64,000 bases of DNA from Patescibacteria group bacterium (GCA_043798935.1 JAZDOC010000002.1:20874-84873), one strand, 5' to 3'. Positions 805-53,518 are shown, counted from the first letter of the stretch. The notes: generated from the sequence alone by a model not told the origin. A program made the numbers and translations.

Positions 805-884
805 GCTCTTATTATACTATATTTATTGAAAAATCAATAAATTGTAAATAAACTGCTAAAATGATATAATAATTTACACTAATA

Positions 885-2419: not shown

Positions 2420-2437
2420 CATCTATCCTTCTTATTT

Positions 2438-2467: not shown

Positions 2468-2472
2468 AGGGG

Positions 2473-3459
2473 GTGAGACAAAATAATATGATACACAACG
2501 ACAAAATTTACAACCAAATAATAATAGACGATCCTTTGATTCAAGAGCTTTATAATTCTAAAACTTTACAGCGTCTAAAAAGCGTTAATCAATACGGTGC
2601 CAGCGTCTATCGCTTTGCCCATCTTACCACTACGCGCTTTGAACACAGCTTAGGCGTTTATTTTTTACTAAAAAAGTTTAATGCTAATTTAGAAGAACAG
2701 GCGGCTGGTTTGCTTCACGACGTACCACACACCGCTTTCTCACATGTAATCGACTTTGTTTTTGGCGGTCCGGAAAATGCCAGTTTTCATGAAGAGTTTC
2801 ACGAATTCTTTTTACATGACAGCGACGCGGTACAAATTTTAGCTAAACACGGCATCGACTGGCATGATATTTACAAAACACATCTTTATAAACTATTAGA
2901 CAGGGACTTGCCGGACTTATGTATGGATCGACTGGATTATTTTTTCCGTGATATGTTTACGGATAATTCTATGACCTTAAAAGAAATAAATAAAATATTA
3001 AAAGATATAACGCGCTTTAATAATTATTTAGCTTTTGAAAACCAAACCACAGCAAAATTTGCGGCCAAAAAATTCCGCGAGGGCGACGACCGCTTATGGA
3101 GTAATCCTTTGCAAGCTACGCTGTATTATATGTTTGCGGAAATAATCAAAATCGCTTTATTTGATGATGTGATTTCTTTCCGAGATTTATTTTCAACCGA
3201 TGAAGCGGTTTATAAAAAACTAGCTTCCACTAAACACGTTAATATTAAAAGACGTTTAAAACAGATTACTTCTTTACAGGTAAAAGAAGATGTTAACAAC
3301 TACGACTATCATATTAAAACTAAAATTCGGGTAATTGATCCTTATGTAGTGCAAAAAGATAAATTAGTTCGTCTTTCCGTTCTCGACCCTATTTTCCACA
3401 AAGAAAACCAAGATTATATGGCTAGAAAACGTGAAGGCTTTTATGTTAAAATAATATAG
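2473..3459 (+). CDS. HD-domain metal-dependent phosphohydrolase
   Basis: H…HD motif context (FEHSLGV… LLHDVPHTAFSH) typical of the HD superfamily. 328 aa. Confidence 0.6.
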   Translation: MRQNNMIHNDKIYNQIIIDDPLIQELYNSKTLQRLKSVNQYGASVYRFAHLTTTRFEHSLGVYFLLKKFNANLEEQAAGLLHDVPHTAFSHVIDFVFGGPENASFHEEFHEFFLHDSDAVQILAKHGIDWHDIYKTHLYKLLDRDLPDLCMDRLDYFFRDMFTDNSMTLKEINKILKDITRFNNYLAFENQTTAKFAAKKFREGDDRLWSNPLQATLYYMFAEIIKIALFDDVISFRDLFSTDEAVYKKLASTKHVNIKRRLKQITSLQVKEDVNNYDYHIKTKIRVIDPYVVQKDKLVRLSVLDPIFHKENQDYMARKREGFYVKII

Positions 3460-3460
3460 T

Positions 3461-6067: not shown

Positions 6068-6104
6068 TATAAATAGAGACGCGATAAGGTTATATATAAA
6101 AGCA

Positions 6105-6132
6105 GCAGAGACGCGCCATAGCGCGTCTCTGC
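6105..6132. terminator. Perfect GC-rich palindrome GCAGAGACGCGC-cata-GCGCGTCTCTGC between convergent valS and pilB (bidirectional intrinsic terminator; member of a repeat family)
   Basis: Read directly. AT-rich flanks. Half-site AGAGACGCG also at 6076-6084. Confidence 0.6.
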
Positions 6133-6225
6133 TTATATACACTACGTATTATTTTATATACATCGCGTATTTTTTCGCTTTATTTTAAAAATTTTCAAGT
6201 TTTCGCGATTCTTTTTTTCGTGTTT

Positions 6226-8052: not shown

Positions 8053-8150
8053 AAAATACTTTTATAGTGTTTATATTATAGCAGAAAAAAATAAATAAAA
8101 AAATGAAGGCGTGGTTACGCATCTCCGCCTTCATTATAGTGTTGCTATAA

Positions 8151-9308
8151 TTAATTTTGCAGTGATTGCGACAGTCTTTCTAAAATAATTTTTTCAGTTT
8201 CTTTGGTGCCGAGATTTTTAAATTCTAAAAATGTAAAATCGGGCGAGCCCTTAATATAGTATTCTCTAAATAATTGGTCGGCTTTAATATAATGGACGGT
8301 ATTAATTAATACTTTGCTGCCAAAATCTGGCTTGTGGTAAATAATGAATATGTTTTTAGCATCAGGCGTGTTTACAATAAGCTCATCGATAACTTTCTCC
8401 AGTTCATCCTCAGTAGCGCCAGCTTCAATAAAATCATAGGCTTCGAGAACAGACCAGACAATATTGTGCTTAAAATCTTTTTGCAACTTGGTTAAAGCCC
8501 GGCCCCATAATTTCAAAGTATGAATGGATTTATTCTGATATAAATTTCTCACTATTTCTTCGCGCCGAGCGCCAGAAGAGATTAAATGCGATGCAATAGC
8601 TAAAGACCGAGGTGTTACCGAAGTGGTTTTAAAACTCTTGGTTTTGGAAATTATTCCAGTTAATAAATTCGTAGCGATAAATTCATCTAAAATTTTAGGA
8701 TCTAAACGTTGCAACATTTCAAAAATAATTTCCGAGGTTGAGGTAGCGGTCACTTCGACAATATTAATTTGGCCGAAGTGTTCATTAGCCGGGCTGTGAT
8801 CAATATTTATAATTGGAACTTTATAAAAAAGTTCTACATTGTTTTCGTAAATACTTCCGAGTGCTTCAAAGTCTGGCGCATCCAAAGTAATGATTAAATC
8901 AAAATTATATTCACCGTCGTATGAAGACACGTTTTCTTTACTAATAAACCCGTTAGTCGGTGTAATATAAATGCTCAAACGATCGCCGTGGGTTTCATAA
9001 TTTAATTCTTGCACTTTGGTTTTGCCTAAATCCACTGAAATAATGAACTTGCGCAAAGCTGAAATATCAGAAAAAATCTCTGAACTGCGTGGTAAAAAAG
9101 AATGGGTATGTGGTAAAACAAATTCTGAAGCCACAATTCTGGGCTTTTTGTTTTTCTTTTCCAAAAATAATAAAACAGCCAAACCCGAAGCAATTGCGTC
9201 AGTAGTTGGCGTTTGCGGCAAACAAATCAATATATTTTCACTTTTAGCAATTATATCTTCAAATTGCTGGTCAGCTTTTAACATTTTCTTTATTAAATAG
9301 TAAAACAA
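8151..9308 (-). CDS. nrnA: DHH-DHHA1 phosphoesterase (NrnA-like oligoribonuclease/pAp phosphatase)
   Basis: DHH motif context IINIDHSPANEHFG. ~385 aa, typical NrnA size. GGGH-like C-terminal domain. Confidence 0.7.
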   Translation of the reverse strand: MFYYLIKKMLKADQQFEDIIAKSENILICLPQTPTTDAIASGLAVLLFLEKKNKKPRIVASEFVLPHTHSFLPRSSEIFSDISALRKFIISVDLGKTKVQELNYETHGDRLSIYITPTNGFISKENVSSYDGEYNFDLIITLDAPDFEALGSIYENNVELFYKVPIINIDHSPANEHFGQINIVEVTATSTSEIIFEMLQRLDPKILDEFIATNLLTGIISKTKSFKTTSVTPRSLAIASHLISSGARREEIVRNLYQNKSIHTLKLWGRALTKLQKDFKHNIVWSVLEAYDFIEAGATEDELEKVIDELIVNTPDAKNIFIIYHKPDFGSKVLINTVHYIKADQLFREYYIKGSPDFTFLEFKNLGTKETEKIILERLSQSLQN

Positions 9309-9370
9309 TGAATTTTCCTCTTTTTTGAAGGAATAGATTATCTTACTATAAATTCAAAATATGTCAAGGG

Positions 9371-9640
9371 TTATTTCCTATATATATAAGATAGCCAAAT
9401 TTTCTTAATATACGGCATTGTTAGGGTTGAAAGCATGAAAGCGATAGCCGGAACGATCGCATTTAGCCAGGGTTTATCAACATTGATAATATATAAGTAA
9501 ACTGCGATCGCAATATAAGTAAAAATCATTAAAATAATTTTTCTGGACCAGCTTGTCTCCCAAGCTTTATCGCCTTCGACTTTATTATTCCTAGATTTTA
9601 TTTCTCCTAGCTCTTTTTTAATTTGTTCTAAATCGTTCAT
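9371..9640 (-). CDS. Small membrane protein (2 predicted TM helices), hypothetical
   Basis: 89-aa ORF with hydrophobic stretches. No family recognised. Confidence 0.35.
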   Translation of the reverse strand: MNDLEQIKKELGEIKSRNNKVEGDKAWETSWSRKIILMIFTYIAIAVYLYIINVDKPWLNAIVPAIAFMLSTLTMPYIKKIWLSYIYRK

Positions 9641-9780
9641 ATACGTTTATTAGCTTACTATTGTATTTATCTATATAATTGTATCATTTACTAAAAAAAT
9701 AAACTACTGTAAGATAAATTTATTAAAATATTAATGTTATGATCGAGCTAGCCTCGATCAGCGCGTCTCGATCGACTAAT

Positions 9781-10437
9781 ATGCTCCAATTCGATATACT
9801 AACAATCTTTCCTCAAATCCTCGACTCTTATTTTAATGAGAGTATTTTAAAAATCGCCCAAAAGAAAAATAAGATTAAAATAATAATTCACGATATTCGA
9901 TCGTTTGCCAAAGATAAACGCAAAACTACCGACGATACTCCTTATGGCGGTGGACCGGGCATGGTCATGAAAATCGAACCAATTCATGATTGCTTAAAAT
10001 CTATAAAACATAAGAAAAAAAGCAAAGTTTTTATTATGGATCCGGCCGGTGAAATATTTAATCAACAGACCGCCAAAAAATATTCGGAAAAATTAGATCA
10101 AATTATTTTTATTTGCGGTCGCTATGAAGGTTTTGATGAAAGAGTTTATAAACTAGCTGATGGTAAAATTTCTATCGGCCAATATGTATTATCTGGTGGC
10201 GAACTTCCAGCCATGATTATTACTGAAGCCATTACCCGTTTAATACCTGGCGTACTAGGGCATGAGCACAGCATACTAGACGAAACCTTTTCACCTGATT
10301 TAGACTATATAGAATATCCGCAATATACTCGACCGGAAACATACAAAATCGGCAATAAAACATACAAAGTTCCGCCAATTTTATTATCCGGTAACCATGA
10401 GAAGATAAATCTTTGGCGCAAAAAAAATGCTAAATAA
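9781..10437 (+). CDS. trmD: tRNA (guanine37-N1)-methyltransferase TrmD
   Basis: MLQFDILTIFPQ… and YGGGPGMVMK are canonical TrmD. The track ORF starts at 9739 but the conserved N-terminus begins at the ATG at 9781. Confidence 0.85.
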   Translation: MLQFDILTIFPQILDSYFNESILKIAQKKNKIKIIIHDIRSFAKDKRKTTDDTPYGGGPGMVMKIEPIHDCLKSIKHKKKSKVFIMDPAGEIFNQQTAKKYSEKLDQIIFICGRYEGFDERVYKLADGKISIGQYVLSGGELPAMIITEAITRLIPGVLGHEHSILDETFSPDLDYIEYPQYTRPETYKIGNKTYKVPPILLSGNHEKINLWRKKNAK

Positions 10438-10860
10438 TGTAACGACCTAGCTTGTCTAGGTCCGCTTACTTGGATCTTGTCTTGATTAAATAATGCTGTT
10501 GATAACTTGTTATTAATAAGATAATTTAAATACTTGACATAATTTAAGAAATCGATTAGGATAATAAAGCGGTTAATTTTATCCGTTTTTACAATAAAAA
10601 ACTACAAACGCTGAAATTAGTTAGAAAGCAACTCTAAGGTTTACTGGATCTATTTATAGAACTATTCGGAAAGTACTTTTTAACTGATTTCAGGGTTTTT
10701 ATTTTAACCTTGAATTAGCTAGTACTTTGACAACCAAATAAGTGACAAGAATTATATCATATTCTTCAATTCTTTTGACGATTTTCTAAAAATCGTTTAT
10801 TTACAATAAATTCCGGTAACAATATCTCTTCACAGAATGTTGTTACTTTATTTTTTTGCT

Positions 10861-12341
<1,481 letters not shown>

Positions 12342-12585
12342 AAGGAGTATAAAAATCCTGCTTCTTTAAAGAAGCAGCTGTCGCCAGTTTAGTTGTTTCG
12401 ACAATTATTCTGGGAGGTATAATTCTTGTCACCTTTTGGTTGTCAAAGCAACTGTGTATTTTTGCTGAGGCTGGATAATCCAGCCTTTTAAAATATTTAC
12501 AATCTTTGGTGTTTTTGGTAGACTATATCTTGTTTAAAATCAAGATATTAAAAATTGCTAATTGTAAAATTGAAAATCGTTATAC

Positions 12586-12659
12586 GGGCATATAGCTCAG
12601 TTGGTTAGAGCGCAGTCCTGATAAGACTGAGGTCCCTCGTTCGAATCGAGGTATGCCCA
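12586..12659 (+). tRNA. tRNA-Ile (anticodon GAT)
   Basis: Cloverleaf read by eye. Anticodon loop CTGATAA. Acceptor GGGCATA/TATGCCC. Confidence 0.85.
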
Positions 12660-12666
12660 CTGGTGA

Positions 12667-12739
12667 GCCGCGGTAGCTCAGCGGTAGAGCAAGGGACTGA
12701 AAATCTCTGTGTCGGTGGTTCGACTCCGCCCCGCGGCAC
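12667..12739 (+). tRNA. tRNA-Phe (anticodon GAA)
   Basis: Near-identical to canonical bacterial tRNA-Phe (GCCGCGGTAGCTCAG…ACTGAAAATC…GGTTCGACTCCGCCCCGCGGCA). Confidence 0.85.
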
Positions 12740-12820
12740 CTGAAATTATTTGATTATTAATTTTCAATTTAATAATCAACCCTCATCGAAAATTGTGAAA
12801 TTGAAAATTGAAAATTATAT

Positions 12821-12896
12821 CGGGGTGTGGCCTAGTGGCTAAGGCGTTCGCTTTGGGAGCGAAAGATCGAGAGTTCAAGTCTCTCCACCCCGACCA
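12821..12896 (+). tRNA. tRNA-Pro (anticodon TGG)
   Basis: CGGGGTG…TTTGGGA loop…CACCCCGACCA. CCA encoded. Confidence 0.8.
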
Positions 12897-12898
12897 TT

Positions 12899-12972
12899 GC
12901 GGGTGTCGTATAATGGTAATACCTCAGCTTTCCAAGCTGATGCCAGGGGTTCGATTCCCCTCACCCGCTCCA
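12899..12972 (+). tRNA. tRNA-Gly (anticodon TCC)
   Basis: GCGGGTG…CTTTCCAAG…GGTTCGATTCCCCTCACCCGCTCCA. Confidence 0.8.
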
Positions 12973-12975
12973 GAT

Positions 12976-13050
12976 GGCGTGGTAGCCAAGTGGTAAGGCA
13001 ACGGTTTGCAAAACCGTTATGCGTCGGTTCAAATCCGTCCCACGCCTCCA
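12976..13050 (+). tRNA. tRNA-Cys (anticodon GCA)
   Basis: GGCGTGG…TTGCAAA loop…GGTTCAAATCCGTCCCACGCCTCCA. Confidence 0.8.
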
Positions 13051-35065: not shown

Positions 35066-36304
35066 TTAGATTAGTTTTATCAACTTAACTCTTTTGATTC
35101 TTCTGTCCTCGGCTTCTTCAATAATAATTCTAACTTTATTTATTGTTAGTTCGTCATTTTTTTGTGGAAACCGACCGGTTTGTTCTAATATTATATGAGC
35201 AATACTCTCATACTCATCATCAGATAAATGGACATTAAAAAAACGGTTTATATGCCCTACAGCTGTACTGGCGTCAGCAATAATGGTTTTTTTATCAAGA
35301 CGCTGGATTGTGTTTTCATCAACATCAGTTTCATCACTTATTTCGCCAACAATTTCTTCCAATAAATCTTCCAGTGTAACAATACCGGTAACATCCCCAT
35401 GTTCATCAACCACCGCCGCAATATGAATGTGTTTTTTTTGAAACTCTCTTAACAAAGAATCCAAAGGTTTTTGTTCAGGTATATATAAAGCCGGCTTCAT
35501 TAACTCTTTAATTTTAATATCGCGCCGTTCACACGAAAAAGAAAGATATTCCAAAACATCTTTGGCAAATAGAATTCCTTTAACATTGTCTTCACTGCCA
35601 AAATATACTGGGAAGCGCGAATGACCGGTTTGATTAATAACATTTAACACATCGCCTAAGATTTGGTTGGATTCAAAACTGATCATTTCGCTCCGAACTG
35701 TCATGATATCTTCGGCTTTAATATCGTTTAATAAAAAAATATTTTTAATCATCTCTTTTTCATCTCTTTCTACAGTGCCCTGTTCTTCACCCAGCTCTAC
35801 CAAGGCTTTAACTTCCTCTTCATGAGCCGGTTTGTCTTCCTGCCCGCCAGCCAGTTCGTAAATAGCCCGGGAAAGTTTTGACAAAAAATAAGAAGCTGGA
35901 TATAGCAGATAAAATAATATTAATAATACTGGCGTCATAAATAATGACAATTGAGCCGGATTTTTTTGCGCTAAAGATTTGGGTAAAATTTCACCAAATA
36001 TTAATATGAGCAATGTCATAATACCAGTAGCCACGCCGGCGCCCACAGAACCAAGCGCGTTTATCGCCACTACAGTTGCCAGAGAGGCGGCACCAATATT
36101 AACTAGATTATTTCCGATTAATATTGTAATTAATACTTTGCCAGCATTATTTTTCAGGTACTCTAATTTTTTAGCATTTTTCTTTTTCTTATCAACTAAA
36201 TTTCTAACTTTTGCCACATTCAAAGAAAATAGTGCAATTTCAGCACTAGAAAAAAATCCTGATAAAAAGATTAATAATATTAAAAAAAGTATATTGGCTA
36301 GCAT
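35066..36304 (-). CDS. corC: HlyC/CorC-family transporter (DUF21-CBS pair-CorC_HlyC)
   Basis: N-terminal 4-TM DUF21, tandem CBS region, C-terminal CorC/HlyC domain. 412 aa. Confidence 0.7.
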   Translation of the reverse strand: MLANILFLILLIFLSGFFSSAEIALFSLNVAKVRNLVDKKKKNAKKLEYLKNNAGKVLITILIGNNLVNIGAASLATVVAINALGSVGAGVATGIMTLLILIFGEILPKSLAQKNPAQLSLFMTPVLLILFYLLYPASYFLSKLSRAIYELAGGQEDKPAHEEEVKALVELGEEQGTVERDEKEMIKNIFLLNDIKAEDIMTVRSEMISFESNQILGDVLNVINQTGHSRFPVYFGSEDNVKGILFAKDVLEYLSFSCERRDIKIKELMKPALYIPEQKPLDSLLREFQKKHIHIAAVVDEHGDVTGIVTLEDLLEEIVGEISDETDVDENTIQRLDKKTIIADASTAVGHINRFFNVHLSDDEYESIAHIILEQTGRFPQKNDELTINKVRIIIEEAEDRRIKRVKLIKLI

Positions 36305-36367
36305 TTGTGCTTATTATACATTAACAAAAAAACTCCGGCAACTAACGGACCTAGGCTTTATTGTATT

Positions 36368-37777
36368 TTATCGAGCTATGATCTCATCATAAAGATCCTG
36401 CCACGGTTTAGCCTGTGCTTCTATGTGCCACTTTGTTTTTTCATATATTTTATGATCAAATTCGTCAAGTGCATGTGCGACTTTGTAACGTAATTCAGCG
36501 TCTCTTTTTATTGAGCTTATTCTATAGCGAAGATTTCTTAGGATTTTATCCATATCATCACGACTTCTACCAAAACGACTTTTGGCTATTCGTGCCATTT
36601 TATCAATTTGTTCTATAGAACAATTGCCAGCTACATTTCTGACATTTTCGCTAGTAAAAAAGGATATTATTTCAGAATTTATACTCTTGGTTAATTCATC
36701 TTGTTTTCTTTGTAACAAATTTTCAACCCAGCTTTCGCTCTCATCTGGAATGCTTCTAGTGTAAATAGTATCTAATCTTTGTAATACTCTTTCTAAAACA
36801 GGTTGTTCTAAAACCAACGCGGCTTCCTCAACAAAATGTCCAACTATAAAGGAAATCTCATGATCTAAAAGATATTCCTGAGCAACTATTAATTCAATTA
36901 AAGTTAAAAATTTTTCCAAAGTTTTTGGAGTGGTAAGATTTTCACATAAATCATTTGCGACAAATCTTATTAAGTCTTCTTTAGATAACCCAGACTCTCC
37001 TGTGCAACTATCTATCGCAGTCAAAGCTTTTTCCGGACTGATATCTAATTCAGTGATTATGTTTGCTGTTGCTGTTTTTTCATCTGGGGTAAGCTCTCGA
37101 CTTCCTGGCTTTGATTGCAATTCTTTTCGTTCTTTTTCTTGTTCTGCATCTAATATTTCTAAAATTTCTCTTGGATGTAATCTTTGCAACTGTCTTAATT
37201 CGACTGTTTCATCTCCGCCTCCATATTCTGCTACTCCCAACCTAACAATAGTAGCCGTTCCTGGGTATCCTTCTTCGTATTGTAATAAAGTTACTTTTTG
37301 TCCGGGTCGTAATCGAGAATCTTCCCATCCTATATACATCCGGCTATTCGATGGTGCTGCGCCCTTATCTGGACCGACATAGGTCGCCTCGCTAGAATAA
37401 CCACCATGACTCAGACGTTGCACCTGTAAATTATCTGGATCCACCGGCTGCCTTAGCCCTCTTTCTTTTTGAATAATAGCCCCTCTTTTCCTGGGCGGTA
37501 TTATTGAATTTTTTGACCCTATTACAACTAAGTCTCCATGTTTTATAGCTGGTGTTATCAATTTTTTTGGATTTTTATGATCATATTTAGGAGGTATTTC
37601 CGGACCCAGATAACGTGCATATCTCATTATTATAAAATCTTCATCAGAGGGATCTCTTTGTTCAATTTCTTTTTCTGAAAAAGATAAAAAACTTCCCAAA
37701 GGCTCCACTTCTCTCTGTTCAATTTTTTCTTCTGGTTGAACGGCTGGAGACGGCCATCTTGGTTCAGCTGGATTCAT
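36368..37777 (-). CDS. Hypothetical protein (469 aa), Pro/Arg/Glu-rich, GC content visibly higher than surrounding genes
   Basis: Long uninterrupted ORF; no family recognised. Composition atypical for this genome. Confidence 0.45.
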   Translation of the reverse strand: MNPAEPRWPSPAVQPEEKIEQREVEPLGSFLSFSEKEIEQRDPSDEDFIIMRYARYLGPEIPPKYDHKNPKKLITPAIKHGDLVVIGSKNSIIPPRKRGAIIQKERGLRQPVDPDNLQVQRLSHGGYSSEATYVGPDKGAAPSNSRMYIGWEDSRLRPGQKVTLLQYEEGYPGTATIVRLGVAEYGGGDETVELRQLQRLHPREILEILDAEQEKERKELQSKPGSRELTPDEKTATANIITELDISPEKALTAIDSCTGESGLSKEDLIRFVANDLCENLTTPKTLEKFLTLIELIVAQEYLLDHEISFIVGHFVEEAALVLEQPVLERVLQRLDTIYTRSIPDESESWVENLLQRKQDELTKSINSEIISFFTSENVRNVAGNCSIEQIDKMARIAKSRFGRSRDDMDKILRNLRYRISSIKRDAELRYKVAHALDEFDHKIYEKTKWHIEAQAKPWQDLYDEIIAR

Positions 37778-37917
37778 AATTTTATATTTATAAATTAATT
37801 ATATCAAAATTTTAGCTTAAAATCAAGGCAAAAATAATCTCATACTTATAGCCACGAATCTTTTCATAGTCATAAGTATGTGCTGCAACCCATGTCCTCA
37901 TGAATTGCAGCTCCCCC

Positions 37918-38238
37918 CTATCCCACTAGAGCTCGAGCAATCACAGCGACCTTTCCTTTCAGGAAAGGGGGTCGCCATGTTCTCAGGAAAACAACATCTG
38001 GAGGTTTCTCCATTAAGACATGGAAGTTTCTCTCATCTTGGCCGTTGACGACCTCGACAAAAGCCGCTCCTCTATCCCAGAGGAGCAGTAACCACAGCCA
38101 TGTCCAGAAACTGGGATCATAAAAAGTGAATATCTCTCTGGCCTTTATTTCGGAGAGATCCAGAAATCTGATCCTTCTTTCTTCATAAAAGTCAATTTCA
38201 TACTGCATTTTATTCCCCGTTGTTTCATGCAGCCCCAC
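37918..38238 (-). CDS. Hypothetical small protein (106 aa; may start at internal Met), Trp-rich
   Basis: ORF only. Same atypical composition as the preceding gene. Confidence 0.3.
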   Translation of the reverse strand: MGLHETTGNKMQYEIDFYEERRIRFLDLSEIKAREIFTFYDPSFWTWLWLLLLWDRGAAFVEVVNGQDERNFHVLMEKPPDVVFLRTWRPPFLKGKVAVIARALVG

Positions 38239-38402
38239 TTTACGCCCCTGGAAATGGCTGTCAACAGATATGACAGAATTAGCATTTTTTAAAATATATT
38301 TGGCTGAAATTAGCTAAATTTATAAATAAATGTTGTTATAATAATTGACAAAATACACCAATTTGCTAAGTTGTACACATAATATAATAACTAAAAAATT
38401 CC

Positions 38403-38434
38403 CCCTCTCCGGAAGCGGAGAGGGGGCCGGGGGT
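38403..38434 (+). promoter_or_regulatory. Second copy of the polypyrimidine/polypurine hairpin (CCCCCTCTCC-ggaagc-GGAGAGGGGG) plus GGGGGTGAGG Shine-Dalgarno, ahead of TrmB-like paralog 1
   Basis: Read directly. Parallels 2438-2467. Confidence 0.4.
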
Positions 38435-38442
38435 GAGGTATT

Positions 38443-39204
38443 ATGGATCTAGCCAAAGACTTAACAAGATTGGGCTTATCAGACAGCGAAGCAAAAGTGT
38501 ATTTGTCTTGTCTTCAGCTAGGCAGGGAAACAGTTTTGAATATCGCTAAACACGCTGATCTTAAGAGACCAAGCGTTTATTTGCTTTTAGAAAATTTAGA
38601 GAAACGAGGGTTAGTTACAAAAACCAAAAAAGCTCATAAAACTTTTTTTAAAGCTGAGGAGCCGGGGCGTTTACTTTCTGGTTTAAAAATGCAAGAAGAA
38701 GTAGTTAATTCTATCCTGCCCTCTTTAGAAGCTATTTATAACATTGATCCTAAAAAACCAAATATTAAAATCGCTGAAGGAAATCAAAGCGTGGCTAATG
38801 TCTATAACGGCATTTTTAATTTCATAGCTAACCATCCTAAAGAAGAATTATTAATTTTCGGTGCGCTAAAAGAAGCTAGTAAATATTTTCAAGATGAAGT
38901 ACAAGATTATTTTATGAAAGTAATGGCTAAATCAAAAAATAGAATTAGAGAAGTAGGAAACAATGACCCTGAAACCAGAAGATATTTCCGCCAAGCCCAC
39001 CGCATTAACCCTAATCATGAAATCAGATTAATTAGATCTGACGGAAGTTTTCAATGTGATAATATGATTTTTGGAAACACAGTAGTCATATTTTCTGTAG
39101 ACGAACAAATCTTCTCCACTATTATAGAATCAGCTGCTATTGCCCAAACTTATCGCACCATGTTTAATATGGCCTGGAAAGCCGGAAAGAAATATATTAT
39201 TTAA
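38443..39204 (+). CDS. TrmB-like helix-turn-helix transcriptional regulator, paralog 1
   Basis: N-terminus LTRLGLSDSEAKVYLSCLQLGRETVLNIAKHADLKRPSVYLLLENLEKRGLV matches the TrmB-family wHTH. Conserved C-terminal …F(N/E/D)(M/I)(A/V)W shared with the other two paralogs. Confidence 0.6.
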   Translation: MDLAKDLTRLGLSDSEAKVYLSCLQLGRETVLNIAKHADLKRPSVYLLLENLEKRGLVTKTKKAHKTFFKAEEPGRLLSGLKMQEEVVNSILPSLEAIYNIDPKKPNIKIAEGNQSVANVYNGIFNFIANHPKEELLIFGALKEASKYFQDEVQDYFMKVMAKSKNRIREVGNNDPETRRYFRQAHRINPNHEIRLIRSDGSFQCDNMIFGNTVVIFSVDEQIFSTIIESAAIAQTYRTMFNMAWKAGKKYII

Positions 39205-39272
39205 TTTTTTATACCCCCAATAAATTGAGGGCCTAAAAAAATAAATAGGCCCTGACTTTAATTAGGGTTTAT

Positions 39273-39932
39273 TTAAGAAAATATCTTTGTCCCAACTCTC
39301 ACCAGAGTTGCACCACATTCCAAAGCAATTTCATAATCCTGACTCATACCCATGGATAGCTCGGTTAATCCATATTCGTCTTTATACATATCAAACATTT
39401 GTTTCATTTTTCTAAAATCCTCTCTAGTGGTTTTCTTATCCTGCAGAGCAGTAATAGTCATGAAACCGATTAAATTTATATTTTTAAATTCAGCTAATTT
39501 AGGAAGCAATACTTTTAAATTCTGTTTTACGATTCCGTGTTTATTTTCATCAACACTTACATTTACTTCTACCATGATATCAATGATCTTGTTAATTTTA
39601 GCGCATTCATTATTAATAACCTGGGCTATGGCGAAACTATCTACGCTCTGAATACAATTGAAATATTTAACAACATGCTTCACTTTGTTGGTTTGTAAAT
39701 GTCCGATGAAATGAAATTTAACTCGTTCTTGTAAAGACGCGATTAATCGAGTTTTTACAAATTTACTTTCAAATTCTTGCCATTTGTTTTCACCGATATA
39801 TTGAACACCGGCAGCAATAGCTGTATTAATATGTTCAGCCGAGTGTTTTTTTGTGACCGCTACTAATTTAGCATTGGGGTTAATGCTATAAATTTTATTA
39901 TTAATAATTTTTATATTTTGTTGAATATTCAT
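39273..39932 (-). CDS. yggS: YggS-family PLP homeostasis protein (alanine-racemase N-domain fold)
   Basis: LVAVTKKHSAEHINTAIAAGVQYIGENKWQE matches the YggS PLP-lysine region. 219 aa. Confidence 0.75.
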   Translation of the reverse strand: MNIQQNIKIINNKIYSINPNAKLVAVTKKHSAEHINTAIAAGVQYIGENKWQEFESKFVKTRLIASLQERVKFHFIGHLQTNKVKHVVKYFNCIQSVDSFAIAQVINNECAKINKIIDIMVEVNVSVDENKHGIVKQNLKVLLPKLAEFKNINLIGFMTITALQDKKTTREDFRKMKQMFDMYKDEYGLTELSMGMSQDYEIALECGATLVRVGTKIFS

Positions 39933-40036
39933 ACCTTAATGATATCCCCAATTAGCCAACAGGTAAAGTGTCAGAAATCTTGACAATTACTATAAAATGA
40001 GATTAAATAATAATAAGAGATTCATAGCGATTCAAT

Positions 40037-40822
40037 ATGAATGACAAAATAAAAAAGGCGTTGCAAGAAATCGGCTTAAGTGCAAACGAAGCCAAGCTTT
40101 TTTTGGCGACCTTACAACTTGGAGCTTCAAATATTTCCCAACTCGCTAAAGCTGCGAAAATCAAAAGACCCACGGCTTATTTAGCGTGCGAATCATTGCT
40201 CACAAAAAAGATGTTGCTCGTGGATAAAAAAAATCCTAGCCGTCCTGTATATAAAGCTAGTGATCCACAAAATATTTTAAATGATATTCGAAAAAAAGAA
40301 GAAATTTTTACCAGCATTTTTCCGGAATTACGACGCGTTAGTAAACAAGAATTATTACCTCATGTTCAAATTGCCGTAGACTACGAAGATATAATAAATT
40401 TGTATCGCGAACTCCTAGACCATTCTGCAAAAAAAGAAGTGATGATCTATGGCACTATTAGCCCTGAAGGTAATGAAGAAATTCATAGTAAGCTTTTAAA
40501 ATATTGGATGCGAATGCTAAAGGTAAAACCGGTTAAAATTAGAGAGATTCTAACTTATACGGATCAAAATTTAAACTACGTTCGGCAAGTAGAAAAAAAC
40601 GGCAATAAAAACCACCGAATAAAAGTCATCCCGGAAACTTTTCAGTATTTACCATATCGCATGAAAATCTTAGACGGCGATAATTTTATTTACGATAATA
40701 AAGTAGTTTCTTTTTCATCCTACAAAGAAAGTTTTTATGCGCTAGTTATTCACCATGCTCATATTTATAATATTTACAGAGATTTATTTGAAATGGCTTG
40801 GGAAATGGCTGAAGAAGGCTAA
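40037..40822 (+). CDS. TrmB-like helix-turn-helix transcriptional regulator, paralog 2
   Basis: LQEIGLSANEAKLFLATLQLGASNISQLAKAAKIKRPTAYLACESLLTKKML… wHTH. Shared C-terminal motif. Confidence 0.6.
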   Translation: MNDKIKKALQEIGLSANEAKLFLATLQLGASNISQLAKAAKIKRPTAYLACESLLTKKMLLVDKKNPSRPVYKASDPQNILNDIRKKEEIFTSIFPELRRVSKQELLPHVQIAVDYEDIINLYRELLDHSAKKEVMIYGTISPEGNEEIHSKLLKYWMRMLKVKPVKIREILTYTDQNLNYVRQVEKNGNKNHRIKVIPETFQYLPYRMKILDGDNFIYDNKVVSFSSYKESFYALVIHHAHIYNIYRDLFEMAWEMAEEG

Positions 40823-42423
40823 TAAATCTCTTTCTTATAGCAATCTTCACAATAAACTTTTTCCGGTCTGCCAGATGAGTAGGTTGATTTTATTTTAGTG
40901 CGGCATTTATTACATTCTCGATCATAAATTTTATTATTATTTCTCCAAGTTAAACGCTCAGCATAACGACACTGATAACACTTATCAGGTTCTAGTAGAT
41001 TATGTTGTTTATAAAAATTAATTTCTTGGGGAATTAATTTAAAATTTTTCTGACAAGTTTTGCATTGCTTAATGTCTTTTGGTAGAGACACGCCATGGCG
41101 TGTCTCTGCATCATCATTTAACCACTGCCAGTCATTTTTTTCTGTTTGTTCTTTATCTAAAGGAAAATAATCCTGGGCATTGGTTTCATTGTAGGCGAAC
41201 AGACTATTTTTAACTGGCATAAACTCTCCCCATTCATTATTCTGCTTCATATACTCAACAATCTGTTTAGTTAATTTATTGTATTCGTCTTCGGAATATT
41301 TTTTATTCAAAATGCAATACTCTTGTTTTTTTAATGATGAACATCCAAAAATAAATTTAGAATTTTGGCAATCAAATGAATAAAAATTATCATTACCGCC
41401 ACAGCAATTTATTGATCCGATTGAGTGTCTGGGCATAGGATAGCTTTCTAAATTTTCATAACCAAATTCACCCACGCCACCATATTCACAATCATAAGAA
41501 TCTTTTATCTGCACCATATTACTTACATGTTTACATTTGTCAGCTTCATGCAAATCAAAACAATTTTCACAATCCTTAGTATTATTTAAATAATCCCCAG
41601 TGGAATTAATAATGCGGCCTAGCTGATTTCGATAACTATGGACAGCTTTATTTTTTATTAAATCTTTAAACTTTTTTAATGCTTCTTGTTGCCCTTCTGA
41701 AGTATTTAATTTTAATTCAGCTAGTTTTTTTTCGTACTCTTCTTTTATATATTGTTTATTCAAAAAACAATATTGTTTATTTCTTAGGTTATAACACATA
41801 GTGCAATTCTGAATATTACGGCAATCATAACAAAATTTGCTTTCGTTTGCAGAAAAACATTTTATTAAAAATTCGCATTCATATAATCTTTCGCCAAAAA
41901 AACTTTGATAAGCCAATTCGGACTTAGTGACATGAAAACAATCAACACAATTTTTACAATATTGCAGCCAGTTGGAATAATAACATTGCTCATTATAGTC
42001 TGAAGAAAAAATCAAATAACAACTGCGATTATTGGTTGTTAGATGCGTATAGGCGGAGTTTTCTGATTTTAAATCAAGCACGGCAATTTGCGGAGTTTTT
42101 AAGATTAGCTCATGCCACTGTTTAAAGAAATCTTTATTAAAATCAAATTCTTGTCCATAATCAAGTGGATTGAATTTGTCTGACCACCAGCAATCACGGC
42201 AATATACAGTTAAACCCGTATCGGGTTTATATTGAGAAATTATTGGTTTGTGGCAAAGGTCGCAAGTACGCTGATATAAATTTCTTTCATTTCTATGAGC
42301 CATTCGTCTTTGCCGCCGGCAATCCGGACACAGCGATGGCTCATTTACATTTATGCGTTTATAAAAGTCTTTATCCTCGCTTGTGGTTTCAAATTGTTTC
42401 GAACATTGGTTACATTGTTTCAT
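40819..42423 (-). CDS. Cysteine-rich protein (534 aa, ~45 Cys) with duplicated N- and C-terminal double zinc-ribbon-like modules; function unknown
   Basis: N-term CxxC…FY…EP..CxxCR…RN..LY.R.CxxC…YCxDC repeated near the C-terminus. Central repeats end in (Q/E)YC(F/I)LNK(Q/K)Y. Palindrome AGAGACACGCC-ATGG-CGTGTCTCT embedded at 41085-41108. Confidence 0.5.
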   Translation of the reverse strand: MKQCNQCSKQFETTSEDKDFYKRINVNEPSLCPDCRRQRRMAHRNERNLYQRTCDLCHKPIISQYKPDTGLTVYCRDCWWSDKFNPLDYGQEFDFNKDFFKQWHELILKTPQIAVLDLKSENSAYTHLTTNNRSCYLIFSSDYNEQCYYSNWLQYCKNCVDCFHVTKSELAYQSFFGERLYECEFLIKCFSANESKFCYDCRNIQNCTMCYNLRNKQYCFLNKQYIKEEYEKKLAELKLNTSEGQQEALKKFKDLIKNKAVHSYRNQLGRIINSTGDYLNNTKDCENCFDLHEADKCKHVSNMVQIKDSYDCEYGGVGEFGYENLESYPMPRHSIGSINCCGGNDNFYSFDCQNSKFIFGCSSLKKQEYCILNKKYSEDEYNKLTKQIVEYMKQNNEWGEFMPVKNSLFAYNETNAQDYFPLDKEQTEKNDWQWLNDDAETRHGVSLPKDIKQCKTCQKNFKLIPQEINFYKQHNLLEPDKCYQCRYAERLTWRNNNKIYDRECNKCRTKIKSTYSSGRPEKVYCEDCYKKEIY

Positions 42424-42441
42424 AATGTTTAATATAAATTA

Positions 42442-42984
42442 TTAATTTAATATAATCAAGATACTTGATATTTTATTTAAAATATTTATAGAAAAATTTG
42501 TGTGCCGCCAGCTCTCTCTCGAGATCCAGCGGTTGTATCTCCAGAAGCACTCAGCTTCGTCTAAATATCCTTCAGACCAGTGGGGGCCCGAAGGAAGTTC
42601 ATGCCCGCTTATGAGTGCTCCCATAGGATTTTCAAATTCGAATACACAATAATGTAATGTTCTTACCATTTTATATTCGGGGTCAGCATACCAAAGACCC
42701 GGAAACATTATGGCAGGGTGCATTACCATATTATGGTAATAAAAATCCAGTAATTCATTAGTAGGGATTTCATTGCAGTATTTCTTGATCCACAAGAAAT
42801 CTTCTTCGCTGTAACGTCGTAGCTGCAAGGCCTCTTTCCACTGTTTTTCACTAGTCACAGATACCACGGTGAACTCACGTCCACCGAGGACCACTGTTTC
42901 AGGCAGTTTGCTTGAGATGTACATTGTATTTTCCTTTGATATCCAAAGCGCGAGATTACGCATGGAGTTCCGTTGTTGGAACAA
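42442..42984 (-). CDS. Hypothetical protein (180 aa), Trp/Tyr-rich, higher GC
   Basis: ORF only; no family recognised. Confidence 0.35.
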   Translation of the reverse strand: MFQQRNSMRNLALWISKENTMYISSKLPETVVLGGREFTVVSVTSEKQWKEALQLRRYSEEDFLWIKKYCNEIPTNELLDFYYHNMVMHPAIMFPGLWYADPEYKMVRTLHYCVFEFENPMGALISGHELPSGPHWSEGYLDEAECFWRYNRWISRESWRHTNFSINILNKISSILIILN

Positions 42985-43085
42985 CTCATAATAAACTATA
43001 CTGAATATATGTCAATTTTATGATTAGTTTTTTTGCTAAGATTAGATATTTTGCTAACTTTAGTAAAAATATTATGTCAAAAATA

Positions 43086-43114
43086 TTGACATTTATAAAA
43101 AAATTAGATAAAAT
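43086..43114 (+). promoter_or_regulatory. Sigma70-type promoter TTGACA-17 nt-TAAAAT upstream of TrmB-like paralog 3
   Basis: Read directly. Predicted TSS ~43121, placing the palindrome TGATCGAC-cttgtg-TCGATCA in the leader. Confidence 0.45.
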
Positions 43115-43158
43115 AAAAATGTTATGATCGACCTTGTGTCGATCAGATAATAAAACAT

Positions 43159-43923
43159 ATGAACTATAAACAAGTATTAAAACAATTCGGCCTTACAGAC
43201 AAAGAAACAGAAATATATCTGGCTTGTTTGCAGTTAGGAAACGACACAGTTCTTAACATTGCTAACAAAGCCGAAATAAAACGACCTACAACATATAATA
43301 TTCTCGAAGACCTAATCGAAAAAGGATTAATTTCAAGAAGCAAACAAAACAATAAAAACATATATATTGCTGAAAATCCGGATAAGCTCAATAAATTAGC
43401 CCAAATCAATAAAAACAACATTGAAGCGATCATTCCAGATTTGAACGCTATATATAATGTTCCACGTGGAACTTCAAAACCAACTATTAAAGTATATGAA
43501 GGATTAAATGCTGTTAAAAGTGTTTATTTAGAAATAATGGATTCTATTAAAGGCAAAGATTTAATGAGATTATATGGATCTATGAGCGATGTGGAGGAAA
43601 ACTTTAAAGATATTACCCATTTTTGGGCAGAAAAGAATCAGTATAAAAATTATCATATTAATGATTTATTAAATCCTGATTTATCCGAAAACCAAAAGTT
43701 TATAAATTCAATTAAAAGCATTGATAATCCAAATTATAAAATCAGATCATTGCCACAGGAGTATAAATTCAATAATATAGATAATATCATCTACAAAAAT
43801 ACAATAGCTATTATTTCTGTTAAAAAAGATATTACTGCTACTGTTATTGAAAACGAAGATATAGCCAATGCCTATAAAACAATGTTCGATATTGTTTGGA
43901 ATATATCAAAAGAAATAAAATAA
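43159..43923 (+). CDS. TrmB-like helix-turn-helix transcriptional regulator, paralog 3
   Basis: LKQFGLTDKETEIYLACLQLGNDTVLNIANKAEIKRPTTYNILEDLIEKGLI… wHTH. Shared C-terminal motif. Confidence 0.6.
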   Translation: MNYKQVLKQFGLTDKETEIYLACLQLGNDTVLNIANKAEIKRPTTYNILEDLIEKGLISRSKQNNKNIYIAENPDKLNKLAQINKNNIEAIIPDLNAIYNVPRGTSKPTIKVYEGLNAVKSVYLEIMDSIKGKDLMRLYGSMSDVEENFKDITHFWAEKNQYKNYHINDLLNPDLSENQKFINSIKSIDNPNYKIRSLPQEYKFNNIDNIIYKNTIAIISVKKDITATVIENEDIANAYKTMFDIVWNISKEIK

Positions 43924-43959
43924 TTATCAATGTTCCACGTGGAACAAAAATCAATATAT

Positions 43960-43993
43960 AATGAAGGCGCGATTACGTAATCGCGCCTTCATT
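43960..43993 (+). terminator. Perfect palindrome AATGAAGGCGCGATTACGTAATCGCGCCTTCATT (terminator of TrmB-like paralog 3)
   Basis: 34-bp perfect inverted repeat followed by a T-rich run. A relative is at 8098-8133. Confidence 0.55.
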
Positions 43994-44005
43994 ATTTTAT
44001 TATTA

Positions 44006-44219
44006 TGTGGACCCTAGGAGAGTTGCCCGCCCGAGGCGGGTCCGCCTTAGGCGGAAATTCCTGAACTTCCCGACGTGACGTCGGCACGCTCTATAGTAAA
44101 AACTGATTAAAATGTGGACCCTAGGAGAGTTGCCCGCCCGAGGCGGGTCCGCCTTAGGCGGAAATTCCTGAACTTCCCGACGTGACGTCGGCACGCTCTA
44201 TAGTAAAAACTGATTAAAA
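44006..44219. repeat. Two identical 107-bp tandem direct repeats, each starting with a copy of the 3' end of the adjacent tRNA-Ala (TGTGGACCCTAGGAGAG) followed by three GC-rich hairpins
   Basis: Units 44006-44112 and 44113-44219 are identical by eye. The third unit position is the genuine tRNA-Ala gene. Looks like att-site/integration scars or a tRNA-end duplication. Confidence 0.7.
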
Positions 44220-44221
44220 TG

Positions 44222-44297
44222 TGGTGGACCCTAGGAGATTCGAACTCCTGACCTCTCCCATGCCATGGGAGCGCTCTACCAACTGAGCTAAGGGCCC
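44222..44297 (-). tRNA. tRNA-Ala (anticodon GGC), CCA encoded
   Basis: Reverse complement GGGCCCTTAGCTCAGTTGGTAGAGCGCTCCC-ATGGCAT-GGGAG…GGAGTTCGAATCTCCTAGGGTCCACCA. Confidence 0.75.
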
Positions 44298-44406
44298 GTT
44301 TTCTCAAATATATTTTGACACACAATTATTATCATACACCTTTTCGACAATAATTTCAATAGTAATGCTGTGGGTAATACTACTGTGGTGTCATTATATC
44401 ATTTTG

Positions 44407-44478
44407 TGCCCCCGGGGGGAATCGGACCACCATCTAGGCTTTAGGAGTGCCTTGTTCTATCCATTGAACTACGGGGAC
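44407..44478 (-). tRNA. tRNA-like sequence, probably tRNA-Arg (anticodon CCT); degenerate, possible pseudogene
   Basis: Good acceptor stem (with G·U) and D-arm (GTAGTTCAATGGATAGAAC). The anticodon loop CTCCTAA reads CCT in a canonical loop context (A-A mismatch at the loop-closing pair). The T-stem carries a T-C mismatch and the T-loop reads TCCGATT, not canonical. Confidence 0.35.
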
Positions 44479-44607
44479 TTATAATATTGTTTGTTATCCA
44501 TTGCCAGCCCGAAGCTGGTCCGCCTTTGGCGAAAACTACGATGATAATATATTATGAAATCTTAAATATATTTGCTAACACTAGCTATTTTTAAGTGTCG
44601 TAAAATA

Positions 44608-52641: not shown

Positions 52642-52777
52642 CTTAAAAAAACACATGAAACTACATTAGTTTAAAAAAATCGGTTCGGAAAAAGTCAAAA
52701 ATAATTTATTCTTTATATCGCGGATTATTTACATACATTTAGAACCTGTTATAATACAAACACAATTAAATCACTAA

Positions 52778-52890
52778 CTGTTAGAGGCGCTCCTAATGGG
52801 GCTGAGAAGTACTCTTAACACCTGATCTAGATAATGCTAGCGCAGGGAAACAGAATATAAACTGTTTTCTTGCGATAAAACAGTTTTTTT
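52778..52890 (+). ncRNA. TPP (thiamine pyrophosphate) riboswitch (THI element) with terminator expression platform
   Basis: P1 CTGTT…AACAG. Conserved GGGGCTGAGA, ACCTGATCTAGATAATGCTAGCGCAGGGAA. Downstream hairpin AAACTGTTTT-n8-AAAACAGTTT plus T8 abutting the thiN start codon. Confidence 0.85.
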
Positions 52891-52891
52891 T

Positions 52892-53518
52892 ATGAAAGTA
52901 ATAATCATCGCCAATGGCGAAATCAATAAAATAAAAAACATTAAACAATATAATTTTATAGTTGCGGCTGACGGTGGTGCTAATTATTGTTATCAAAATA
53001 AAATTAAACCTAATTTAATTATAGGCGATTTTGATTCTATAGATAATAAAGTCAAAAAATATTATTCGAAAATGAAAAGTATTGTTCATATAATAGATGT
53101 CGATCAAAATACTACTGATATTGAAAAAGCTCTAAATTATATAAAAAATAATTTTAAAAATAAATTAAAATCTAATTCGCGTATTGATATTTTAGGCGCT
53201 ACTAGTAATATTCGTCTCGACCATACTTTATATAATGTAAATCTGCTTAAACAATATTCTACTCTGCCAATTAAAATAAACTCGTTAAATTATTCGGTTG
53301 AAATTATTTCAAAAAATAAAATTATTAGAAACCGAAAAAATAAAACCATCTCTCTTTTTTCAGTTAGTAAAATAAAAAAAATAAACCTAACCGGTTTCAA
53401 ATGGCTGTTGCCAAATAATTGTAATCAAAACAATATTTCTGTTTCTAATGTAATAATTAGAAACATTGCCAAAATAAATTTTTCTCAAGGAAAAATAATT
53501 TTAATAATTAACAAATAA
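52892..53518 (+). CDS. thiN: Thiamine pyrophosphokinase (ThiN/TPK type)
   Basis: GDFDS catalytic motif (IIGDFDSI). 208 aa. Directly downstream of the TPP riboswitch. Confidence 0.7.
   Translation: MKVIIIANGEINKIKNIKQYNFIVAADGGANYCYQNKIKPNLIIGDFDSIDNKVKKYYSKMKSIVHIIDVDQNTTDIEKALNYIKNNFKNKLKSNSRIDILGATSNIRLDHTLYNVNLLKQYSTLPIKINSLNYSVEIISKNKIIRNRKNKTISLFSVSKIKKINLTGFKWLLPNNCNQNNISVSNVIIRNIAKINFSQGKIILIINK

Follow-up and report, generated by a model that had tools for sequence, protein, structure and literature searches.

TrmB-family proteins are dimers that bind spaced palindromes at promoters, and operators with a spacer of 5-8 nt are a known type for this family. The Rickettsia palindromic elements (RPEs) are about 100-150 bp long and restricted to Rickettsia, and the REP sequences (repetitive extragenic palindromes) and bacterial interspersed mosaic elements (BIMEs), which are mobilised by REP-associated tyrosine transposases (RAYTs), stand beside elements derived from the insertion sequences IS200/IS605, the REPs being extragenic. 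In mitochondria, double-hairpin elements, GC clusters and repetitive hairpin-forming elements (RHEs) are short, GC-rich and found in AT-rich, compact genomes (PMC2800124). Here we analysed a stretch of 64,000 nt from a Patescibacteria group bacterium (GCA_043798935.1, JAZDOC010000002.1:20874-84873), referred to below as the window, and within it the block at 36.3-44.5 kb, which holds three genes for TrmB-like regulators, a gene for a Cys-rich protein and, at its border with a tRNA-Ala gene, tandem repeats containing a 30-nt double-hairpin element (TCCGCCNAAGGCGGACCNGCCTCGGGCNGG). A sequence-only reading had described this block as a degraded island of regulator-target modules integrated at the tRNA. 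The island call for the block was not supported, and the border repeats are probably unrelated to island integration. In our view the block is probably native chromosome with a conserved array of TrmB modules, and its border repeats are dead tRNA copies that carry a hairpin element widespread in bacteria of the candidate phyla radiation (CPR).

The extent of the block stands as first given, from just after corC, which ends at 36304, to tRNA-Ala(GGC) at 44222-44297 on the minus strand. The features of the block and its edges, with open reading frame abbreviated as ORF, are:

35066-36304, minus strand: corC (CNNM/CBS/CorC_HlyC), the left limit of the block
36368-37777, minus strand: gene for a 469-aa protein (NCBI V1898_00510)
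37918-38238, minus strand: 106-aa ORF (p106)
38259-38275, no strand: candidate operator palindrome TGTCAACAGATATGACA in the p106/trmB1 divergent region
38334-38350: second palindrome site, with one mismatch, upstream of trmB1
38443-39204, plus strand: TrmB-like regulator 1 (trmB1), 253 aa, PF01978 with E=7e-15
39273-39932, minus strand: yggS, pyridoxal phosphate-binding protein, TIGR00044 with E=1e-51
39969-39985, no strand: candidate palindrome TGTCAGAAATCTTGACA in the yggS/trmB2 divergent region
40037-40822, plus strand: TrmB-like regulator 2 (trmB2), 261 aa, PF01978 with E=3e-11
40819-42423, minus strand: 534-aa Cys-rich protein (cys534, NCBI V1898_00530)
42442-42984, minus strand: 180-aa ORF (p180; 138 aa in the NCBI version, V1898_00535)
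43075-43091, no strand: candidate palindrome TGTCAAAAATATTGACA in the p180/trmB3 divergent region
43159-43923, plus strand: TrmB-like regulator 3 (trmB3), 254 aa, PF01978 with E=1e-14
43958-43995, no strand: bidirectional terminator-like hairpin
44008-44114 and 44115-44221, minus strand: two identical 107-nt decayed tRNA-Ala copies, from Tandem Repeats Finder (TRF) and alignment to tRNA-Ala
44026-44055 and 44133-44162: 30-nt double-hairpin element in the T-loop slot of the decayed tRNA-Ala copies
44222-44297, minus strand: tRNA-Ala(GGC)
44406-44478, minus strand: tRNA-Arg(CCT)
44488-44547, minus strand: tRNA-Arg 5' fragment split by a third element copy (44504-44533)

The synteny comparison was made with one close relative species, represented by two contigs of the European Nucleotide Archive (L036/L037, about 70% amino acid identity) that were found via the Cys-rich protein. 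The right flank of this relative reads RNase Y, ClpP, DHH, RbfA, IF2, a diacylglycerol kinase (DAGK)-like gene, bactofilin, tRNA-Arg(CCT) and tRNA-Ala(GGC); past tRNA-Ala follow a TrmB3 orthologue, a Cys-rich orthologue, a TrmB gene, a second Cys-rich paralog, a truncated TrmB2-like gene and yggS, and farther on, with intervening stretches, another TrmB gene and the TrmB1 orthologue. Identities to the window are 71% for IF2, 63% for the DAGK-like protein and 66% for bactofilin in the flank, and 73% for TrmB3, 70% for the Cys-rich protein, 52% for YggS and 78% for TrmB1 in the block. Since the genes adjoining the tRNA match the housekeeping flank in identity, the backbone of the block is taken to be as old as its flanks and to lie at the same locus, and on this comparison the regulators, yggS and the Cys-rich gene would have been in place before the two lineages split. 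In the window itself, bactofilin, the DAGK-like gene, IF2, a DHH-family protein and RNase Y form the housekeeping flank to the right of the tRNA pair, and thioredoxin reductase, an aminotransferase and glutamate dehydrogenase that to the left; tRNA-Arg(CCT), which adjoins tRNA-Ala, had not been mentioned before. A scan of GTDB genomes anchored on CorC returned relatives of at most 40% identity, among which a Peregrinibacteria locus (L003) has a Cys-rich homologue 4.6 kb from corC, and no contig was matched when cys534 and P0036, its paralog in the same genome, were looked up as exact proteins.

The repeats at the tRNA border were confirmed. TRF reports a 107-bp tandem repeat at 44005-44238 (2.2 copies, 97% matches), and each unit does open, on the plus strand, with a 14-base copy of the tRNA-Ala 3' end (TGGACCCTAGGAGA, at 44008, 44115 and 44225). 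In its 5' part, too, the unit can be aligned to tRNA-Ala, over the D arm and the anticodon arm and as far as the T stem, with the 5' acceptor strand gone; this alignment scores 29, compared with 13.7±2.7 for shuffled sequences and 12-17 when the eight other tRNAs in the window are used. An attachment (att) site would match the 3' end alone, and since the homology runs from the D arm onward, the border repeats are not att sites. The sequence GGACCTAGGC, proposed as a weak partner of the tRNA 3' end at the opposite border, is indeed present at 36347-36356, but its status as a partner did not hold: it is not within three mismatches of the 14-mer from the tRNA 3' end, of which 1.5 chance matches at this stringency are expected per window, and the copies of the 3' end lie at the tRNA side only, with none at the distal border, where the 10-mer is at chance level. 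Likewise, a domain scan of the eight block proteins and ten flank proteins found no recombinase or integrase domain, and the claim that the window lacks an integrase therefore stands for these proteins, the rest of the window having been outside the scan. A whole block that is a decayed genomic island, integrated in the 3' end of tRNA-Ala with the tandem repeats as att remnants, is thus very improbable and already largely refuted, even though tRNA 3'-end sequence is repeated at the border, ORFs of atypical GC and without homologues lie inside, and the block is more deviant in tetranucleotides than all other 7.7-kb stretches of the window. Besides the D-arm homology, the chance-level partner and the missing integrase, the relative speaks against it: in this one species TrmB3, the Cys-rich protein, yggS and TrmB1 are retained at the tRNA-Ala locus, TrmB3 and the Cys-rich orthologue adjoin the same tRNA pair at flank-like identity, and only 22 bp separate tRNA-Ala from the stop codon of the regulator. 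The 107-nt units themselves are absent from L036.

The T loop of each unit is replaced, after tRNA nucleotide 55, by a 30-nt insert with two GC hairpins. The two 107-nt units are identical, which points to a recent tandem duplication. The third copy of the element, situated 25 nt upstream of tRNA-Arg, is slightly diverged, its stem changes being compensatory; when the insert is removed, the sequence reads CGTAGTT^CAATGGATA and equals tRNA-Arg positions 6-21, so that this insert sits in the D loop. Judged by these alignments, the border repeats are dead tRNA duplicates that carry an insertion. The order of events would have been that a dead tRNA-Ala duplicate was hit in its T loop, at TT^CAA, by the 30-nt element, the unit then being brought into tandem, and that the tRNA-Arg 5' fragment upstream of tRNA-Arg was hit likewise in its D loop. 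The repeat unit was also considered as a functional tRNA with a UCA anticodon loop and rejected, as it has no 5' acceptor strand and no ARAGORN or Rfam call. In the relative, a tRNA-Ala(UGC)-like pseudogene that lacks about 5 nt of the anticodon stem and is not called by ARAGORN lies between tRNA-Arg and tRNA-Ala (L036, 8822-8892), which indicates that tRNA decay at this locus is recurrent.

The element is by no means confined to this locus. A scan for TCCGCCNAAGGCGGACCNGCCTCGGGCNGG with 25 fixed bases matched at least 120 metagenome contigs, with about 105 distinct contexts among the matches listed; the counts that follow in this and the next paragraph are likewise among the matches listed. 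Many dispersed, near-identical copies thus occur in unrelated contexts, as in a mini-element, and conservation is sharply limited to about 30 nt, with unconserved flanks. A variable stem pair covaries (A-T in 77, C-G in 24, a mismatch in 1). The 5' flank is NTT in 77 of 105 contexts and TTC in 14, and the 3' triplet is CAA in 63 of 105, with CAG, CAT and CGA also seen and its first base fixed by the pattern; on these flank triplets the insertion site is TT^CAA, a sequence central to the T loops of bacterial tRNAs and to certain D and anticodon loops. Neither clear terminal inverted repeats nor an evident target duplication at TT^CAA were found, and the two internal hairpins differ from each other. 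Searches of IMG/VR, 72,556 plasmids and 50,697 phage records did not find the element, and neither the relative nor 595 kb of other loci contains it. A variant, nested as TCCGCC-GCTGGCGTAGCCAGC-TTTTGGCGGA, occupies the T-loop slot of another tRNA-Arg 3' fragment (L097, about 1000-1060; L141/L148), and the existence of such variant hairpin forms means that the family is broader than the scanned pattern.

The element lies within 250 nt of a tRNA in 17 of 106 contexts. T-loop cases have the interrupted 3' fragment downstream of an intact tRNA (9/9 mapped), and D-loop cases have the interrupted 5' fragment upstream (7/8). A strict polarity rule was nevertheless discarded on account of L097, where a tandem tRNA-Arg duplication carries the element in the second copy. 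This placement could also be explained if the 107-bp unit, composed of tRNA 3' part, spacer and hairpin, were a miniature integrating cassette that brings a replacement tRNA end, in the manner of integrative elements, and was inserted twice. On other contigs the tRNA fragment that bears the hairpin is often unlike, in sequence, the intact tRNA next to it (L054, L155, L061/L160), and some loci have a GIY-YIG nuclease gene between the 5' fragment and a tRNA-like sequence, both of which would suit a cassette as well. The unit encodes no enzyme, however, its two copies are identical as expected from recent tandem duplication, and the plain tandem duplication in L097 fits duplication followed by insertion. 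We therefore consider the cassette rather improbable and prefer insertion of the element into dead tRNA duplicates. A group I intron account of Patescibacteria tRNAs concerns position 35/36 and is inapplicable to the element.

Apart from tRNA fragments, the element occurs in intergenic DNA and inside housekeeping protein genes. Among the matches listed, it lies within long ORFs in 35 of 106 contexts, always as 10 codons, and this exact length of 10 codons would explain why it is tolerated there. The reading frame is strongly biased in both orientations (same matches), with SAQGGPASGW in 22 of 24 forward cases and PARG[GW]SA[LF]GG in 8 of 11 reverse cases. Host genes encode RecG, LeuRS, LigA, Fmt, MurB, MurG, a CCA-adding-type enzyme and TrmD, and entries identical to these proteins are on record, including ones from Parcubacteria DG_72 and Microgenomates GW2011_GWC1_41_8. 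Genes with and without the element coexist: RecG carries it in L042, L139, L104, L120 and L093 and lacks it in L082 and L062, and TrmD carries it in L060 and lacks it in the window. Among the five RecG orthologues, nucleotide identity is 97-100% within the element and 52-80% in the coding sequence beside it, a contrast that fits repeated or recent insertion, or strong nucleotide-level constraint, and not an old neutral peptide insert. The LeuRS of L067/L123 (P0126) holds two copies, SAQGGPASGWQ at residue 238 and SAKGGPASGWE at residue 491. Its 90% cluster was searched for empty element sites; all members have both inserts, and no empty site was found among these near-identical strains. Taken together, the element appears to behave like a small site-specific insertion element.

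Small nuclease genes of the GIY-YIG family (PF01541, E about 1e-15) are found near the element: in 9 of 107 contexts such a gene begins at a distance of 13-31 nt, and 18 of 120 element loci have a member of the family, both counts being among the matches listed, compared with none of 42 other loci. Such genes of 81-100 aa lie on the strand opposite to the element in L043, L076, L084, L088, L096, L116, L127, L129 and L131. They are often found between a tRNA 5' fragment and tRNA-like sequence, with their 3' end running into the latter (L076, L131). It is possible that the GIY-YIG gene is an autonomous partner of the element. We offer only tentatively, at somewhat less than an even chance, the fuller proposal that TCCGCCNAAGGCGGACCNGCCTCGGGCNGG is an undescribed, currently or recently active CPR element specific for TT^CAA, which homes into the T, D and anticodon loops of tRNAs and, as 10 codons, into protein genes, which may be mobilised by GIY-YIG cassettes or derived from their ends, and whose tRNA scars mimic att sites and may lead predictions of islands astray. 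No description of the element, of its peptides or of palindromic or miniature inverted-repeat transposable elements in CPR bacteria was found in the searchable literature.

The three TrmB paralogs, which share 27-36% pairwise identity, carry PF01978 with 55, 43 and 55 bits (cut-off 25.6), above the gathering score in all three cases, and this bears out their assignment in the sequence-only reading; no fourth paralog was found within the window. A profile of the paralogs matches Pyrococcus furiosus TrmB (PDB 3QPH) with E=7e-9, residues 3-185 aligning to 7-187, and the NCBIfam TrmB/TrmBL1 alignment reaches residue 187 of TrmB2, with 18-33 bits for the three paralogs against equivalog cut-offs of 500-650. 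The PADLOC and NCBIfam matches of the regulators were set aside as generic winged-helix matches.

Each regulator is divergent from a minus-strand gene or genes, also as first described, and the layout of regulator and divergent-gene modules is real and conserved in the relative: units of this form are repeated three times in the window and five times in the relative, and each module in the window has the same 17-bp palindrome. This sequence, TGTCA-N7-TGACA, occurs exactly three times in 64 kb (38259, 39969 and 43075; 0.14 expected), and all three copies sit in the TrmB divergent intergenic regions. In L036, a locus of 21.6 kb, it again occurs three times, each time in a TrmB divergent region. 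Both the exact and the one-mismatch site upstream of trmB1 are kept in L036, the trmB3 site has an L036 equivalent, and alignments of the orthologous intergenic regions of the window and L036 show the palindrome blocks retained within diverged surrounding sequence. The candidate operator differs from the archaeal TGM motif of TrmB.

The palindromes overlap promoter sequence. At trmB3 a promoter match of 11/12 (TTGACA-17-TAAAAT, 43086-43114) has the right half as its -35 hexamer, and at trmB1 the left half coincides with a -35-like hexamer of the opposite, minus-strand promoter. TGTCA-N7-TGACA might accordingly be read as the paired -35 boxes of divergent promoters, unbound by TrmB, with the adjacency to the regulators devoid of regulatory meaning. 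The half-sites do equal or nearly equal TTGACA on one strand, and in genomes farther removed the homologues of the Cys-rich protein lack a TrmB gene beside them. Yet the palindrome is found nowhere else in 64 kb despite many other divergent promoters, each of the three TrmB modules has it, it recurs in the relative, and spaced palindromes of this kind are a known operator type of the family, all of which makes the paired-box explanation unlikely. In the operator reading, which we favour, each TrmB dimer would bind its own palindrome in the shared promoter region, would repress or tune both its own promoter and the divergent one, and would respond to a ligand. By analogy with described TrmB proteins we infer autoregulation combined with control of the divergent gene through the candidate operator.

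Further structured sequences lie around the regulator genes. A perfect 14-nt palindrome, GTTCCACGTGGAAC, occurs twice, inside trmB3 (43459-43472) and just past its stop codon (43932-43945), and both copies are exact in L036 (9053-9066 and 9516-9529), with a spacing of 473 bp in the window and 463 bp in L036 and a chance expectation of 0.05 per window; it could be a protein site, an element of DNA looping or a terminator. Hairpin-bearing insertions stand directly before the start of trmB1 (38390-38440, CCCCCTCTCCGGAAGCGGAGAGGGGG) and of trmB3 (43128-43158, GATCGACCTTGTGTCGATC) and are absent from the otherwise conserved intergenic regions of L036. C-rich hairpins like these are found near the 30-nt element in contigs L041, L136 and L151.

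The 534-aa protein is Cys-rich as described, with a count of 37 cysteines and not about 45. Its sequence is the same as that of NCBI V1898_00530 [Patescibacteria group bacterium], which lies on a 127-kb contig of the metagenome-assembled genome (MAG). The family comprises at least 1504 proteins of about 550 aa each and is annotated in Peregrinibacteria, Gracilibacteria, Kerfeldbacteria and other Patescibacteria. Several paralogs per genome are common: this MAG has a second one, and L040 has five in tandem. Distant members adjoin genes for a DUF87 ATPase, PrmC, RF-1 and L31 and have no TrmB gene nearby, so the adjacency to TrmB is lineage-specific. An AlphaFold2 model of cys534 built from 40 homologues is confident (predicted local distance difference test, pLDDT, 81; predicted template modelling score, pTM, 0.83), and paired CxxC zinc-finger modules are present in duplicate, formed by the first 85 and the last 85 residues. 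The Cys-rich protein is a widespread, uncharacterised zinc-finger and beta-solenoid protein of Patescibacteria; no solved structure related to it by sequence was found, and a metal-binding structural or scaffold role is our guess. In every pair seen, Cys-rich and TrmB genes converge with a 4-nt overlap of their stop codons (window, 40819-40822; L036, 11590-11593 and 14108-14111). The five L040 paralogs, 36-64% identical to cys534, lie within 10.8 kb (1-10798) and are interleaved with a gene for an AbiEii toxin domain and one for an AAA_14/DUF4143 ATPase.

The remaining genes between the regulators are of a different kind. The 469-, 106- and 180-aa ORFs matched nothing in Pfam, NCBIfam, PHROG or PADLOC and nothing in the relative, where the 106-aa ORF was searched by tblastn. 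Among 5.8e9 proteins the 469-aa protein matched itself only, and so did the 180-aa protein (5.8 billion proteins); an exhaustive HMMER search with the 469-aa protein returned itself and one spurious repeat protein, P0123, its sole non-self match, which was rejected as a repeat artefact. A single-sequence AlphaFold2 prediction of the 469-aa protein was uninformative (pLDDT 48). The slot between the TrmB3 and Cys-rich orthologues of L036 lacks the 180-aa ORF, and the relative has different ORFs in equivalent slots, several with a GC of 0.40-0.57 and one with a GC at third codon positions (GC3) of 0.72. The description of the block as accessory is therefore fair for the individual genes between the regulators, which are lineage-specific and in two cases of atypical composition, and not for the block. 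As part of the native-chromosome reading, and with the same degree of confidence, we suggest that the 469-, 106- and 180-aa genes turn over quickly, with the regulators, yggS and the Cys-rich protein being inherited vertically.

Whether the two smaller ORFs are genes can be doubted. They could be GC-rich non-coding DNA, or decayed foreign DNA, lying between the regulators: they have no homologues, their GC3 is atypical, the 106-aa ORF is apparently unannotated by NCBI (the locus tags run from 00510 to 00530), and the corresponding slot of L036 holds an Arg-rich, implausible ORF of 152 aa with a GC of 0.53. Against this, both stay open over a considerable length in a genome rich in AT, the 180-aa ORF has a 138-aa counterpart in the NCBI annotation, and no Rfam RNA family lies at either. 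We consider the non-coding alternative unlikely, if a good deal more plausible than an island or a cassette, and retain the view that they are genes. For the repeats and the high-GC ORFs, Rfam searches at the gathering threshold and at E≤5 yielded only sub-threshold hits, to RAGATH-32 and ncS025.

The composition of the block had been called atypical, and this was upheld in part. Against a window GC of 36% and a mean gene GC of 0.365, the 106-aa ORF (GC 0.458, GC3 0.477, GC3 z=2.7) and the 180-aa ORF (GC 0.403, GC3 0.436, GC3 z=2.1) deviate, but the 469-aa gene is average (GC 0.367, z=0.05), with a low, host-like GC3 of 0.223 and a local GC peak of 0.47-0.51 at 37.2-37.5 kb. The deviation of the block is confined to 36.5-39.5 kb and 42.5-45 kb, and the trmB1–yggS–trmB2–cys534 core is typical (z between -1 and 0.6).

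Several points weigh against our account of the locus. The block as a whole, although its signal comes from those two sub-regions, has the highest tetranucleotide deviation of all 7.7-kb stretches in the window (0.170, with 0.09-0.165 for the others), and the contig of the relative stops short of corC at its left end, so that the left border is outside the comparison. Two of the five modules in L036 have no exact palindrome, and the palindrome could be just two back-to-back -35 hexamers. As for the element, the scan used a fixed pattern of 25 bases, by which the diversity and host range of the family are under-sampled; we infer its mobility from its distribution and from empty sites; and there is no GIY-YIG gene in the window.

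Two other features of the window lie apart from the block. At 10855-13050 the genes for five tRNAs (Ile, Phe, Pro, Gly and Cys) come after a 16S rRNA gene, the window having no 23S rRNA gene, and at 52773-53518 a thiamine pyrophosphate (TPP) riboswitch (76.6 bits) is followed by a 208-aa gene, which with a GC of 0.226 (z=-3.1) is the most AT-rich gene of the window.

The analysis of the block removes a false genomic-island call and leaves a concrete regulon model in an uncultured Patescibacterium, with three TrmB paralogs, one type of candidate operator and neighbours of fast turnover, in a group for which almost nothing of transcription regulation has been characterised. The block itself is of modest interest, and what deserves further work is the 30-nt element, which breaks up copies of tRNA genes and adds 10 residues to RecG, LeuRS, LigA, Fmt, MurB, MurG and TrmD. 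If mobile, it would be among the smallest site-specific insertion elements known, a bacterial counterpart of the RPEs and of the mitochondrial hairpin elements, and a source of annotation artefacts in CPR genomes, such as pseudo-att sites, spurious tRNA calls and insert-bearing proteins.

Compared with known systems, the regulators resemble TrmB, TrmBL1 and TrmBL2 in their PF01978 winged helix and in a homology to 3QPH that takes in the dimerisation helix and the beginning of the effector domain, and they resemble TrmB in a short-spacer palindromic candidate operator that overlaps the promoter; they differ from P. furiosus TrmB in length, about 253-261 aa as opposed to about 340 aa, and in lacking the C-terminal sugar-binding barrel. 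The element shares with the RPEs that repeated palindromes lie in frame within housekeeping genes, where they are translated, and also in non-coding DNA and RNA genes, but at 30 nt it is far more uniform, has a defined TT^CAA site and is found in CPR bacteria. With REPs and the IS200/IS605-derived elements it shares the form of an imperfect palindrome of about 30-40 nt that is defined by its hairpins, the placement next to a short specific sequence, and the absence of terminal inverted repeats and of an obvious target duplication; no Y1/HUH transposase was seen near the copies examined, however, and the enriched neighbour here is a GIY-YIG gene. The mitochondrial hairpin elements are similar in having one or two hairpins, in their intergenic dispersal with occasional copies in protein or rRNA genes, and in their presumed mobility (PMC2800124), but they are organellar, have no known fixed target or length and show no sequence relation to the element described here. 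Finally, the locus has in common with tRNA-integrated islands a copy of a tRNA 3' end beside the tRNA gene and near genes of odd composition. It differs from them in that no integrase was found in the scanned set and no distal att site is present, in that the neighbouring genes are orthologous in the relative, and in that the repeat is a whole decayed tRNA copy with a hairpin element inserted in it.

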